DNA from: a virus
Lineage: Duplodnaviria; Heunggongvirae; Uroviricota; Caudoviricetes
IMG/VR virus record: IMGVR_UViG_2534681997_000004
Coordinates: 1 to 41,177 of that record
Reading direction: 5' to 3' (one strand)
DNA: 41,177 nucleotides
Position 1 is the stretch's first letter; each line of letters opens with the position of its first letter. A program made the position numbers and the translations under genes. Below, one piece after another: positions 14,530 to 18,118 of the stretch. The notes beneath the pieces are model-generated. The model ran no database searches and was not told the origin of the DNA. It was given only the letters and a program-made list of their open reading frames with translations.

Positions 14530-15215
14530 ATACTCAATTTCTCGAATACGTGCGCCAGCAGTTGATGGTGGCGACCGCAGACCTCAGCGGGGCGACGAAA
14601 GGGCAGCTGGTAGCTTTCGCCGAGAACGCGCAATTCACCGCGACGGCGCGGAGTCGGGGCCGGAAAAAGGTATTCGACAAGGATAAGCAGCGCATGGTCA
14701 ATCCTGACGGCCAGCCGATGAGCGGCAACCAGTCCCGCGCTAAGGGCTCGTCTATCGCGCTGGTGGGCCCGGTAGAGTACGGGACCGCATCGTGGCGCCG
14801 CGCTGTTCTGTCGCTTGAAGACCATCAGAAAGCGTGGCTGCTATGGAACTATAGCGAGAACGTGCGCTGGTGCTATCAGGTGGAAATCACTCAATGGGCG
14901 TGGGCAGAGTTCCGGGAGCAGCTCGGCGCGAAGAAGGTGGCCGGCAAAACGATGGAGCGCCTGAAGAAGCTTGTCTGGCTCGCGGCTCAGGACGTGAAAG
15001 CAGAGCTGGCAGGGCGTGAGACGTACGAATATCAGGCGCTGGCGTCGCTGGTTGGCGTAACGCCAAAAAACTGGTCAGAGACCTTTACTGACCGCTGGGT
15101 TGAGATGCGCAGCATCTTCCTGCGACTGGATAGCGGGGCTTTATTGCAGGTTACGCGATCACGTTCACAACAAAAGGCGACAAATTTAGACTCAAGTCTT
15201 GCAAAACTGGATTGA
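14526..15215 (+). CDS. Putative late-gene antiterminator (Q-like)
   Basis: 229-aa ORF between rusA and the lysis cassette, followed by a promoter-like element and intrinsic terminators; assignment mainly positional. Confidence 0.5.
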   Translation: MNTQFLEYVRQQLMVATADLSGATKGQLVAFAENAQFTATARSRGRKKVFDKDKQRMVNPDGQPMSGNQSRAKGSSIALVGPVEYGTASWRRAVLSLEDHQKAWLLWNYSENVRWCYQVEITQWAWAEFREQLGAKKVAGKTMERLKKLVWLAAQDVKAELAGRETYEYQALASLVGVTPKNWSETFTDRWVEMRSIFLRLDSGALLQVTRSRSQQKATNLDSSLAKLD

Positions 15216-15235
15216 AACGCATATATTTCATGTAA
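15207..15235 (+). promoter_or_regulatory. Putative late promoter (PR'-like)
   Basis: TTGCAA-17 nt-TATATT at the 3' end of the Q-like gene, upstream of tandem terminators and the holin gene. Confidence 0.35.
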
Positions 15236-15281
15236 ATCTGATATCGTCGCCATAGCTTCGTAGGTCGACAAAGAATTAAGA

Positions 15282-15311
15282 GCCTCGCCATCGTGCGGGG
15301 CTTTTTTATTT
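15282..15311 (+). terminator. Intrinsic terminator (tR'-like, first of tandem pair)
   Basis: 7-bp stem GCCTCGC/GCGGGGC with 6-nt loop followed by TTTTTTATTT. Confidence 0.55.
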
Positions 15312-15385
15312 GCGGTACGCAGCACACAGAACCCACTACCTGGGACCCTTCGGCCAGAGAGCCGACATTGCCTTACCCTCACATT

Positions 15386-15412
15386 GCCAGCCTGTCGCTG
15401 GCTTTTTTATTT
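15386..15412 (+). terminator. Intrinsic terminator (second of tandem pair)
   Basis: GCCAGC-ctgtc-GCTGGC stem-loop followed by TTTTTTATTT. Confidence 0.55.
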
Positions 15413-15484
15413 GCGATGTCCGGTCGTTGTTTCCTGGCATCCTTCCACTCTACACAAACAGCACCCCGTTCTTTCGGAGGTGAT

Positions 15485-15802
15485 ATGGCAAAGCGTATGA
15501 ATGACGACCATAAAATTGTAGGCCTGTCCTGGTTAGTCCTGCTCGGCATTGCATGCTGGGGCGGTTTAGTTCGCTACCTGATCGACGTAAAGCAGAATAA
15601 AGCGACATGGAGCTGGATAAACGCGCTGGCACAGATCGCTGTCTCCGGCTTTACCGGTTTGATTGGCGGGTTGATAAGCGTGGAGAGTGGGTTGAGTTTT
15701 CACATGATCCTTGTCACGTCCGGCATTAGCGGGGCGATGGGTTCAGTGGCTCTGACCTATTTCTGGGAACGCTTGACGGGGATGAAGAATGCAAACCAGT
15801 GA
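15485..15802 (+). CDS. Holin
   Basis: 105 aa with GGAGGTGA RBS; hydrophobic transmembrane segments; immediately upstream of and overlapping the lysozyme gene. Confidence 0.7.
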   Translation: MAKRMNDDHKIVGLSWLVLLGIACWGGLVRYLIDVKQNKATWSWINALAQIAVSGFTGLIGGLISVESGLSFHMILVTSGISGAMGSVALTYFWERLTGMKNANQ

Positions 15803-16229
15803 TAAAGGCATTGCCCTGATCAAAGAGTTCGAAGGTTGCAAGCTCACTGCCTATCAGGACAGCGTCGGCGTTTGGACGATCGGTTATGGCTGGACTCAGC
15901 CCGTCGACGGGAAACCAATCCGTGCCGGGATGACAATTAAGCAGGAAACGGCAGAACGCCTGCTGAAGACAGGAATGGTCAGTTACGAAAGTGACGTGTC
16001 ACGACTGGTTAAAGTTGGCCTGACTCAGGGGCAATTCGATGCCCTGGTGTCGTTCACGTATAACCTCGGTGCGCGGTCATTGTCGACATCGACTCTCCTG
16101 CGAAAACTCAACGCCGGAGATTACGCTGGTGCAGCCGATGAGTTCCTGCGCTGGAATAAAGCTGGTGGGAAGGTGCTGAATGGGCTGACACGTCGGCGGG
16201 AGGCAGAGCGAGCTCTGTTCCTGTCATGA
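15789..16229 (+). CDS. Endolysin, lysozyme (GH24 / T4-lysozyme-like)
   Basis: N-terminal LIKEFEGCKLTAYQDSVGVWTIGYGWT catalytic motif. Confidence 0.85.
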   Translation: MQTSDKGIALIKEFEGCKLTAYQDSVGVWTIGYGWTQPVDGKPIRAGMTIKQETAERLLKTGMVSYESDVSRLVKVGLTQGQFDALVSFTYNLGARSLSTSTLLRKLNAGDYAGAADEFLRWNKAGGKVLNGLTRRREAERALFLS

Positions 16230-16612
16230 TTAGCGCACTGGTTAAGCGTTACTGGCTGCAGTTGCTGGTGCTGGCGTTAATCGGCGTGCTGGCGTTCTTC
16301 GTGAACCACTACCGCGACAACGCCATCGCCTACAAAGACCAACGCGATAAGGCGACGGTCCGGGCAGACACATCAGAGGCGATCACCAGCAACGTGATCA
16401 CCACGATGAACCTCATCCGTGACATCTCACAGGCTACCCAGAATGCAAAGAACGAACTGGCTAAAAAGGGCGAGACGCGCATTGTCTACATCAGGCAATG
16501 GCTTGAAGGCGATCCGTGCGCTAAGCAGCTTGTTCCTACTGCCGCTACTGACAGCCTGCGGGAATTCGCAGACAGTTTACGTTCCGGCCCCAGTGGTGCC
16601 GATAAGCGCTGA
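16226..16612 (+). CDS. Rz-like i-spanin
   Basis: 128 aa with N-terminal TM helix and coiled-coil-rich periplasmic part; directly after lysozyme gene. Confidence 0.6.
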   Translation: MISALVKRYWLQLLVLALIGVLAFFVNHYRDNAIAYKDQRDKATVRADTSEAITSNVITTMNLIRDISQATQNAKNELAKKGETRIVYIRQWLEGDPCAKQLVPTAATDSLREFADSLRSGPSGADKR

Positions 16613-16766
16613 CCTGACCGCAGACACACCGATCCCCGGAATGGTGGTTCCGTTCACATGGCAGGCAAGTCTCGAGTTAAACGCTCAGCTCTACACGGCG
16701 CTGGGGCAGTGCAATCTGGATAAGGCAGCAATCAGGAAAATCGAATCATCAAGAGCCTCGCAATAG
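16419..16766 (+). CDS. Rz1-like o-spanin lipoprotein (overlapped with Rz in a different frame)
   Basis: Alternate-frame ORF starting inside Rz; lipobox LLPLLTAC-G; start codon ambiguous (GTG 16419 or ATG 16443). Confidence 0.5.
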   Translation: MTSHRLPRMQRTNWLKRARRALSTSGNGLKAIRALSSLFLLPLLTACGNSQTVYVPAPVVPISADLTADTPIPGMVVPFTWQASLELNAQLYTALGQCNLDKAAIRKIESSRASQ

Positions 16767-16779
16767 CGGGGCTTTTTTA
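16755..16779 (+). terminator. Intrinsic terminator after lysis cassette
   Basis: GCCTCGC-aata-GCGGGGC stem-loop plus TTTTTT; near-duplicate of the 15282 terminator. Confidence 0.55.
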
Positions 16780-16927
16780 CGCCTGCAGTAAACCCGCGCA
16801 TTCTCGTGCGCATATCAACCAAGAGCCTTTCGGGGTAGAGCTTGAGATAGGGCAGTGGTAACGCTGACCGCTCTTGGGCTGCCCATATCTACGAGAACAG
16901 GCTCAACCACCAAAAGGTATCAGCGAA

Positions 16928-17425
16928 ATGAAATCATTAACCCTCTTCAATCAACCAATCCGTGTCGGGGAAGACGGCATGATCTGCCTCACCGATATGT
17001 GGAAAGCCAGTGGCAAAAGTGATGCTGAGTCGCCTTACCACTATCTGCGAAACAAGCAGACAAAAGAGTTCCTGGCCGAGCTGGAGAAAAACCACGAATC
17101 TGTGGTTTTCACTGAGCGCGGTGTACACGGTGGAACATATGGCGGGAAGTTTGTTGCTTACGATTATGCGGCTTGGTTAAACCCCGGGTTCAAGTACGCG
17201 GCCTATAAAGTCCTCGATGACTACTTCACTGGAGAACTTCAGCATCGCAACAGCTTAAGTGCGCAGCTCAACATGAAGTGCCATGAGTTTGACCAGAAAA
17301 AGGACATGGCGAGCTTCTGCGGACAAGGACTCGCAGCATGGCGTTATACGAAGCCTGTATTGGTCGCTGAGATTAACACCCTTGCTAACCAGCTGCAGAT
17401 TACGATCCCAGGGCTTCAAGGATGA
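16928..17425 (+). CDS. KilA-N domain protein
   Basis: N-terminal region (ICLTDMWKASGKSDAESPYHYLRNKQTKEFLAEL) resembles the KilA-N DNA-binding domain; alternative upstream ATG at 16874. Confidence 0.55.
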   Translation: MKSLTLFNQPIRVGEDGMICLTDMWKASGKSDAESPYHYLRNKQTKEFLAELEKNHESVVFTERGVHGGTYGGKFVAYDYAAWLNPGFKYAAYKVLDDYFTGELQHRNSLSAQLNMKCHEFDQKKDMASFCGQGLAAWRYTKPVLVAEINTLANQLQITIPGLQG

Positions 17426-17679: not shown

Positions 17680-17817
17680 CCATTACAAAGCTCATCGCCG
17701 GGTGGGCTTGATAATGGAAAAAATTAAAGCTTATATTGTGGTTGACATAATCCATTGTTTTGCAATGGTTATTTTGTTGTTGGTATAATTAACTCGTTCC
17801 ACAGATAGGGGGTTAAT

Positions 17818-18096
17818 ATGCTGACAATAATTCTGTTTGACGATGGGAAGCCTGGCTTGATTTGGCCTATCGAAGAAATTGGCAAAGTGGTAAAAGTCCC
17901 TGACTACCAGTTTAAGGCTCGAGAAATGCTCGGTGGTGTGGCGGTCATGCCTGATGTGGAGTATCAGGTCTATGAGTTCCAGATGGATGACGAGATTTAT
18001 CTTATTGGAGTAAATGGGGGCAGGCCAAGCGACGATGTAATTAAGTCTCACATCAAGCATGGCGACCCCAAGCCGGAACCATACAAAACACTGTAA
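17818..18096 (+). CDS. Hypothetical protein (AT-rich moron with own promoter and terminator)
   Basis: 92 aa with GGGGG RBS; extended -10 TGGTATAAT at 17782..17790 upstream; intrinsic terminator immediately downstream. Confidence 0.5.
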   Translation: MLTIILFDDGKPGLIWPIEEIGKVVKVPDYQFKAREMLGGVAVMPDVEYQVYEFQMDDEIYLIGVNGGRPSDDVIKSHIKHGDPKPEPYKTL

Positions 18097-18118
18097 CCGC
18101 CTCCGGGCGGTTTTTTAT
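18097..18118 (+). terminator. Intrinsic terminator
   Basis: CCGCC-tccg-GGCGG stem-loop followed by TTTTTT. Confidence 0.6.

Follow-up and report, generated by a model that had tools for sequence, protein, structure and literature searches.

Probable late-gene control region of the phage 82 type in a lambdoid prophage, with a leader RNA of the IsrJ family

Lambdoid prophages control their late genes at a promoter, PR', which is followed by a terminator, tR'. The region described here lies between a Q antiterminator gene and the lysis genes in a 41,177-nucleotide (nt) stretch of viral DNA (IMG/VR record IMGVR_UViG_2534681997_000004; called the window below). The window carries a prophage that opens with an integrase gene and extends to tail genes on the plus strand, and the region is very probably an ordinary late-gene switch of a lambda-like prophage, of a well-known kind. 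The gene upstream of the promoter was called Q-like in an earlier sequence-only reading. It encodes an antiterminator of the phage 82 family: the protein matches PF06323 over residues 5-221 (E = 5.8e-87; 291 bits against a cutoff of 25). It is 75% identical to Q of the Enterobacter phage CobraSix, 67% identical to the 82-like Q of phage 434, and 63% identical to AntQ of the Salmonella prophage Gifsy-1. By sequence, no matching chain was found in the copy of the Protein Data Bank searched, and Q82 is alone among the Q families in lacking a solved structure there. In 2022 the Q82 family was named as the one Q family that was still uncharacterised, and the lambda Q (PF03589) and Q21 (PF06530) families have no obvious sequence similarity to it (PMC9388147). 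A Pfam search and the open reading frame (ORF) map place lysis and morphogenesis genes downstream of the promoter on the same strand, and long plus-strand ORFs extend past the lysis genes to about 40 kb. The holin gene is 88% identical in nucleotide sequence to gene 13 of the ST64T/P22 type. Coordinates are collected in Table 1.

Table 1. Features of the late-gene control region and adjoining genes in the window.
Feature	Position	Strand	Basis
Q antiterminator gene, phage 82 family, 229 aa	14526..15215	+	Pfam PF06323 (Phage_antiter_Q)
-35 element TTGCAA of the late promoter (PR')	15199..15204	+	within the last Q codons
Promoter spacer, 17 nt, AACTGGATTGAAACGCA; candidate Q-binding element	15205..15221	+	position
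-10 element TATATT	15222..15227	+	position identical in 43/43 sequences
Transcription start zone	15231..15234	+	Rfam isrJ model starts at 15231; A15234 if the start lies 7 nt past the -10 hexamer
Predicted short leader RNA ending at T1, IsrJ family, ~75-80 nt	15231..15311	+	Rfam RF01393
Predicted sigma70-dependent pause element, extended -10-like TGaTATCGT	15239..15247	+	conservation, register
Leader hairpin 1 (GUCGcC ... GgUCGAC)	15246..15269	+	part of the Rfam isrJ consensus structure
T1 (tR'), intrinsic terminator	15278..15311	+	fold; hairpin and T-run at the same place in relatives
Short linker; site of tRNA genes or morons in relatives	15312..15329	+	comparison with relatives
Conserved trailer of the tRNA cassette	15330..15385	+	at least 18 loci, 84% mean column identity
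T2, intrinsic terminator closing the cassette slot	15386..15412	+	fold; compensatory stem changes
Holin, first late gene	15485..15802	+	PF16083, E = 6e-21
Endolysin	15789..16229	+	PF00959, E = 2e-50
Rz-like i-spanin	16226..16612	+	ORF; CobraSix homologue annotated as Rz-like spanin
Rz1-like o-spanin, start uncertain (16503 or 16530)	16530..16766	+	ORF frame, lipobox LLPLLTAC, CobraSix annotation
T3, post-lysis intrinsic terminator, arms as in T1	16751..16779	+	fold; loop AATA

The region was compared with 39 genomic loci encoding Q relatives (designated by L numbers), which together with CobraSix, phage 434 and Gifsy-1 make 42 loci. The relatives belong to Enterobacter, Citrobacter, Kluyvera, Leclercia, Raoultella and other genera. 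Those of their Q proteins that match over the full length have 58-93% identity; three weaker hits (L040-L042) are partial or only 45% identical. Addition of the window gives 43 promoter sequences, of which 31 are distinct. The record for phage 82 (X92588) stops at the -35 element, so phage 434 was taken as the reference.

A promoter-like sequence of the form TTGCAA-17-TATATT had been noted over the end of the Q-like gene; it is present at 15199-15227, and its register is conserved in all 43 sequences. In 42 of 42 loci, as in the window, TTGCAx and a -10 hexamer are separated by 17 nt, with the motif G-n-TATnnT another 14 nt downstream. TTGCA is invariant in the 31 distinct sequences (43 loci). 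The -10 hexamer varies between TATATT, TACATT, CATATT, TATACT and similar forms. There are no insertions or deletions from the -35 element through to the pause element in any of the distinct sequences, and five pause element columns (G42, T44, A45, T46 and T49, numbered from the start of the -35 element) are invariant or nearly so. In the relatives examined, the promoter module always begins 14 nt before the Q stop codon; in the window this codon, TGA (15213-15215), falls inside the promoter spacer. The window spacer, AACTGGATTGAAACGCA, agrees with that of phage 434 at 14 of 17 positions. For lambdoid Q proteins the Q-binding element is described as situated between the -35 and -10 elements (PMC4914094), and by its position the 17-nt spacer is a candidate for this element.

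The pause element can be placed relative to a probable transcription start at A15234, 7 nt downstream of the -10 element. The hexamer of TGaTATCGT would then occupy about +9 to +14. In lambda, the pause lies 10-11 nt beyond the -10-like element, so a sigma70-dependent pause is predicted in the window near +25 (about 15258). The pause at PR' of phage 82 has been published as +25; that of lambda is at +16/17 and that of phage 21 at +18 (PMC3326312, PMC4914094). The window spacing thus fits the sigma-dependent pause of phage 82, and phage 434 has TGGTATGTT at the position of the pause element. PR'82-Q82 of phages 82 and 434 resembles the window in several further respects. The Q protein, 67% identical to that of the window, is likewise a member of PF06323. 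The last Q codons contain the -35 element TTGCAA, after which come a 17-nt spacer, a -10 element and a TG-n-TATnnT pause element, all in identical register, and a terminator follows within about 80 nt. Differences lie downstream. The window leader is longer than that of phage 434 (about 75 nt against about 54 nt), having an A-rich linker and an additional hairpin; the two terminators differ in sequence; and the window has in addition the T2 module before the lysis genes.

Two other promoters were considered. The sequence TTCACA-17-TAGACT at 15164 was rejected, as its -10 hexamer is not conserved in the relatives. A CII-activated antisense promoter (paQ) was also rejected. Phage 434 carries an annotated CII site over its -35 element; at the corresponding place the minus strand of the window reads TTGC-N6-TGAG, unlike the consensus TTGY-N6-TTGY.

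The sequence-only reading had also placed two intrinsic terminators about 100 bp apart before the holin gene and a near-identical one after Rz1. All three are there (T1, T2 and T3), with coordinates that agree to within a few bases; T1 and T2 are 101 bp apart, and the stem arms of T3 are the same as those of T1. T1 has an 11-bp stem (15278-15305), a loop of 6 nt (CATCGT) and a U6-A-U3 tail ending at 15311 (UUUUUUAUUU). Its folding energy is -16.4 kcal/mol (z = -3.6). A GC-rich hairpin with a T-run is found at this position in 39 of 40 distinct leaders, a count which includes four leaders whose fold was cut short of the terminator and which were judged from sequence; several different stem sequences occur.

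It could be argued that T1 merely terminates an early operon ending with Q, and that the promoter hexamers are a by-product of the C-terminal codons of Q. The -35 element does lie in coding sequence, and the hexamer match taken alone is at chance level. However, the non-coding -10 and pause elements are conserved as well as the coding part, and in Gifsy-1 the same module, from TTGCAA onwards, follows a different gene (anrP), yet IsrJ is made there from its own promoter. This explanation is considered highly improbable.

The RNA expected between the start zone and T1 belongs to a named family. Positions 15231-15304 match the Rfam isrJ model RF01393 over its full length (all 75 model positions) and score 68.7 bits, where the threshold is 37 (E = 1e-10 over the whole window); no other Rfam family passes its threshold anywhere in the window. 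Of 40 related loci, 24 likewise have an isrJ match that begins 19 nt past the Q stop codon. The remaining loci keep the promoter and the pause element; there, the leader hairpin or the terminator sequence differs. In the relatives leader hairpin 1 is formed by three unrelated pairs of arms, all at one place: GUCGCC/GGUCGAC, UGCCA/UGGCA and GCUGCC/GGCGGC. These were judged from single-sequence folds, in which the three arm types have slightly different registers. The hairpin is absent from leaders of the 82/434 type and from those of L015 and L032.

IsrJ was described in Gifsy-1 as a stable RNA of 74 nt; primer extension located its 5' end, and its own promoter drives expression on a plasmid (PMC2330248). 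It is transcribed strongly in a lysogen with silent lytic genes (PMC7067206), and this is the behaviour expected of a constitutive late promoter which terminates at tR'. The covariance-model match takes in both hairpins. Gifsy-1 and the window are 86% identical in nucleotide sequence over the stretch that begins with the -35 element and ends with the terminator, and AntQ also belongs to the Q82 family. RNAs of the IsrJ class are thus likely to be the terminated leaders of Q82-type late promoters, and may be made constitutively by many prophages of Enterobacteriaceae, including the window. In the literature searched, IsrJ is treated as an island-encoded virulence small RNA (sRNA), and a statement linking it to the leader of a Q82-type late promoter was not found. 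The link ties a named Salmonella sRNA family to a textbook mechanism. It also suggests that many matches to the isrJ family in enterobacterial genomes mark prophage late promoters.

The arrangement in Gifsy-1 differs from that in the window. In Gifsy-1, isrK-orf45-anrP lies between antQ and the promoter module from which IsrJ is made, and the first bases of this module, TTGCAA, immediately follow the stop codon of anrP; in the window the module abuts Q directly. Gifsy-1 also has tRNA-Arg, isrI and gogA between the module and the holin gene. The Gifsy-1 RNA which the literature assigns to an antitermination-regulated promoter is IsrK, not IsrJ. In the Gifsy-1 locus (L003; NC_010392, region 1661-2607), isrK (1697-1773) overlaps an Rfam c4-a1b1 match (1684-1736), and a match to C4 antisense RNA comes next (1799-1882). 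On these grounds isrK-orf45-anrP looks like a c4/icd/ant antirepressor module of the P1 immI type, inserted between antQ and the Q82-type promoter. This suggests that PisrJ, rather than PisrK, is the Q-responsive late promoter of Gifsy-1. If IsrJ is indeed the PR' leader, then isrK-orf45-anrP would be a c4/ant insert and not an antitermination-regulated unit.

The unit from promoter to T1 might instead be selected mainly as a trans-acting, IsrJ-like sRNA in the lysogen, with antitermination only its evolutionary origin. This is compatible with late-gene control by Q, and a number of observations point in its direction besides the full-length isrJ match. Salmonella in which isrJ is deleted shows less invasion and less translocation of effectors, and its invasion rate recovers when isrJ is supplied on a plasmid (PMC2330248). 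StxS, the short RNA from PR' of Stx phages, functions as an sRNA (PMC7547250). Leader hairpin 1 persists although its arms have three different sequences, and the A-rich linker and U tail of the leader are typical of sRNAs bound by Hfq. However, the most conserved bases are DNA signals (-35, -10 and pause elements) and not a candidate seed region, and the leaders of the 82/434 type, L015 and L032 have neither hairpin 1 nor the linker. The virulence phenotype of IsrJ is known for Salmonella only; the host of the window is probably not Salmonella, and there is no known target. Selection mainly for the sRNA is therefore rather unlikely. That the leader acts in trans on host mRNAs in the host of the window, as StxS does in its own, is similarly doubtful.

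Taken together, it is very likely that the region provides PR'-tR' control of the late genes of a lambdoid prophage with a Q of the phage 82 type, combining a constitutive start, a pause at about +25, a stop at T1 with T2 as a second gate, and Q-dependent read-through. Host RNA polymerase with sigma70 would start constitutively at about 15231-15234, from the promoter overlapping the end of the Q gene, and sigma70 would re-bind the -10-like element and pause the polymerase. Without Q, transcription would terminate at T1 and release an IsrJ-type RNA of about 75 nt, and the few polymerases leaking through would be stopped at T2, ahead of the holin gene. When Q is supplied by the upstream gene, it would bind its site in the promoter DNA and load onto the paused polymerase, which would then ignore T1, T2, T3 and later terminators and transcribe the lysis and structural genes. 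This resembles the system of PR', 6S RNA and tR' in lambda and that of PR' in Stx phages, where a constitutive late promoter gives a short terminated RNA in lysogens and Q-loaded polymerase passes the terminators into the late genes (PMC7547250). Lambda differs from the 82 type in its pause at +16/17 and in its longer leader, which terminates at about +193 (PMC4914094). The late-promoter interpretation of the earlier reading is upheld by the promoter, pause element and terminator, which have the geometry of phage 82 PR' and are conserved in 42 related loci, and by the late genes which follow on the plus strand.

Several points weigh against this proposal. It is drawn, for the window locus, from sequence elements and known systems: the elements, their conservation, the Q family and membership of the isrJ family are observed in the DNA, and promoter activity, pause position, Q-binding site and Q-dependent read-through are taken from phage 82 and IsrJ. 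The Q-binding element is assigned in the window by position. A promoter match of 9/12 consensus bases is by itself at chance level (22 sites in 20 kb against 17.6 expected), so that the case for the promoter rests on conservation. The mapped 5' end of IsrJ corresponds to 15231, and a pause at +25 would fit best with a start 3 nt downstream of this position. IsrJ has been reported to depend on HilA (PMC2330248), which is unexpected for a simple constitutive PR'. L036 has no obvious T1 within the 105-140 nt examined.

T2 has a different history from T1. It consists of a 6-bp stem (15386-15402) followed by the same tail as T1 (UUUUUUAUUU), and with -10.9 kcal/mol (z = -2.6) it is weaker than either of the other hairpins. 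At least 18 loci share the conserved segment 15322-15412, with homology breaking off exactly where the T2 U-tract ends (15411/15412). At least three unrelated sequences are found downstream of T2 in different loci; T2 is thus also a mosaic junction. In L006, L011, L016, L019 and L034, tRNA-Asn(GTT) lies about 8 nt after T1 and is followed by tRNA-Thr(TGT) and then by the conserved segment, which begins from the 3' end of tRNA-Thr. The homologous trailer is directly 3' of tRNA-Thr in these five loci and in L010. Other relatives have a small ORF with tRNA-Arg (CobraSix) or degenerate tRNAs in the slot. Since the T2 module follows tRNA-Thr in relatives, T2 is best read as the trailer terminator of a cargo slot behind T1. 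An origin as a second copy of T1/tR' was rejected; T2 ends a conserved trailer of the tRNA slot, about 90 nt long. The gap between T1 and tRNA-Asn is too short for a sigma70 promoter, so the tRNAs would be transcribed by read-through from PR', and in tRNA-bearing relatives T2 would serve to keep this read-through out of the lysis genes. The tandem terminators of the sequence-only reading are thus both present, but the second appears to be the trailer terminator of an empty tRNA slot and not a second tR'.

A tRNA scan found none in the window, the spacer between T1 and T2 included, and the trailer is accordingly not preceded by a tRNA. The window trailer therefore appears to be a remnant and the region between T1 and T2 an empty cargo slot, a tRNA-less version of the cassette. 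T2 would have originated as the terminator closing a slot which in relatives holds tRNA-Asn/tRNA-Thr or morons after T1; with the slot empty, it would now be only a back-up gate. The trailer and T2 are also kept with an empty slot in L009, L012, L013, L027 and E. coli KFu022 (91-98% identity).

Whether even a back-up role is selected can be questioned. T2 may simply be left over from the deleted tRNA cassette, with T1 alone terminating sufficiently; this is possible though not favoured, and it is partly compatible with a two-gate switch. It would account for a module that is the 3' trailer of tRNA-Asn/tRNA-Thr in relatives and stands in the window without a tRNA, and for the weakness of the hairpin; in the 82/434 type, PR' is immediately followed by one annotated terminator. 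It explains less well why the trailer and T2 are nearly intact in the five other tRNA-less loci. The T2 stem has compensatory changes in three pairs (18 loci), which indicates that the hairpin is maintained by selection across the group. The P22-like phage ST64T also keeps an equivalent terminator immediately upstream of the holin gene. Its order resembles that of the window: PR', T1, tRNA or tRNA-like genes, a trailer containing GCCTTACCCTC, a terminator and a homologous holin. ST64T differs in its promoter and in its Q, which is annotated as similar to that of phage 21, and the window has lost the tRNAs.

The trailer itself (15330-15385) contains the invariant run GACATTGCC..ACCC..CA and a small hairpin, UCGGC/GCCGA, with a compensatory change at one of its pairs; the trailer is retained even in loci without tRNAs. 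Possibilities include a processing signal or an sRNA derived from the 3' trailer. An Rfam search of 15000-17000 (E <= 1) yielded no credible match for either the T2 trailer or T3; the only hits there were weak ones, at chance level, to families that include a terminator.

An exact direct repeat of 16 nt, GGCTTTTTTATTTGCG, is found at the tails of T1 (15299-15314) and T2 (15400-15415), where 0.03 matches would be expected. Each copy covers the 3' arm and U-tract of its terminator together with the next 7 bases. Among 20 sequences compared, the tail ATTTGCG past T2 occurs only in the window and in the identical segment of KFu022. As the sequence after T2 differs in relatives, the repeat may mark a lineage-specific recombination or deletion event. 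KFu022 is a river isolate in which 226 nt are 100% identical to the window and adjoin a truncated Q gene. This locus (L043; NZ_CP091677, 2572-3226) is a defective prophage: PR', T1 and T2 are unchanged, and the Q gene is cut to 84 nt and abuts a RecE fragment. With Q reduced in this way, the lysis genes should be locked behind the terminators.

Other small RNA genes are found in the same part of related prophages. The Rfam families isrI and STnc100, at times with more than one copy, turn up repeatedly in the cargo region that separates the Q82-type promoter from the lysis genes in L023, L028, L029, L033, L035, L037, L038 and L039. The slot thus appears to be a hotspot for small RNA genes.

T3 is the most stable of the hairpins by z-score (-5.6; -17.0 kcal/mol). 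T1 and T3 have identical stem arms, AAGAGCCUCGC and GCGGGGCUUUUUUA, including a U-G wobble pair, and differ in their loops (CATCGT in T1, AATA in T3). The window contains two copies of the pattern AGCCTCGC-N(3-7)-GCGGGGCTTTT, for which 100 shuffles give an expectation of 0.00. The 5' arm of T3 supplies the last codons of Rz1. In relatives with the same Rz1, homology with the window breaks off at 16745-16750, immediately ahead of T3, and only CobraSix shares T3 there. The exact 23-nt T3 core, AGCCTCGCAATAGCGGGGCTTTT (window 16754-16776; also L045-L124), is present in at least 119 IMG/VR viral contigs; the hairpin is conserved far beyond its surroundings. Among the matches listed there are 82 distinct upstream and 81 distinct downstream flanks, and many of the upstream flanks resemble the end of the window Rz1 gene. 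The T1 and T3 alleles occur together in five relatives; elsewhere, unrelated terminators replace T1.

These data bear on the suggestion that the terminator module had been duplicated and reused by recombination. The position of T3 at a breakpoint of Rz1 homology fits reuse. Local duplication was rejected, as relatives with the same Rz1 have no T3 and the T3 allele is widespread elsewhere. With its widespread core, varied flanks and co-occurrence with T1, T3 appears instead to be, like T1, an allele of a portable terminator which recurs at module boundaries. Convergence on a good terminator design, with neither shared ancestry nor recombination, might produce a similar picture, because GC-rich 8-bp stems with a U6 tract are generic and the two loops differ. 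It would have to produce identical arms with the same wobble and the same three flanking A's, and it does not account for the co-occurrence of the alleles, for the varied flanks and breakpoint position of T3, or for the T1 of L025, whose loop (AATCT) makes it intermediate between the two alleles. Convergence is thus quite improbable.

For prophage annotation, the start of the late operon is fixed and three terminators are explained. The 31 distinct natural promoter variants in a fixed register could help to define the DNA site of Q82. What is added to the known switch is the identification of IsrJ-family RNAs as probable leaders of Q82-type late promoters, the apparently empty tRNA slot and the putative portable terminator. 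Further downstream, the window has a moron-like unit at 17708-18112. Two promoter-like sites (17708-17737 and 17760-17789), both strong with 10/12 matches and one with an extended TG, precede a 92-aa ORF (17818-18096), which is followed by a symmetric hairpin (18095-18112) that scores as a terminator on both strands.

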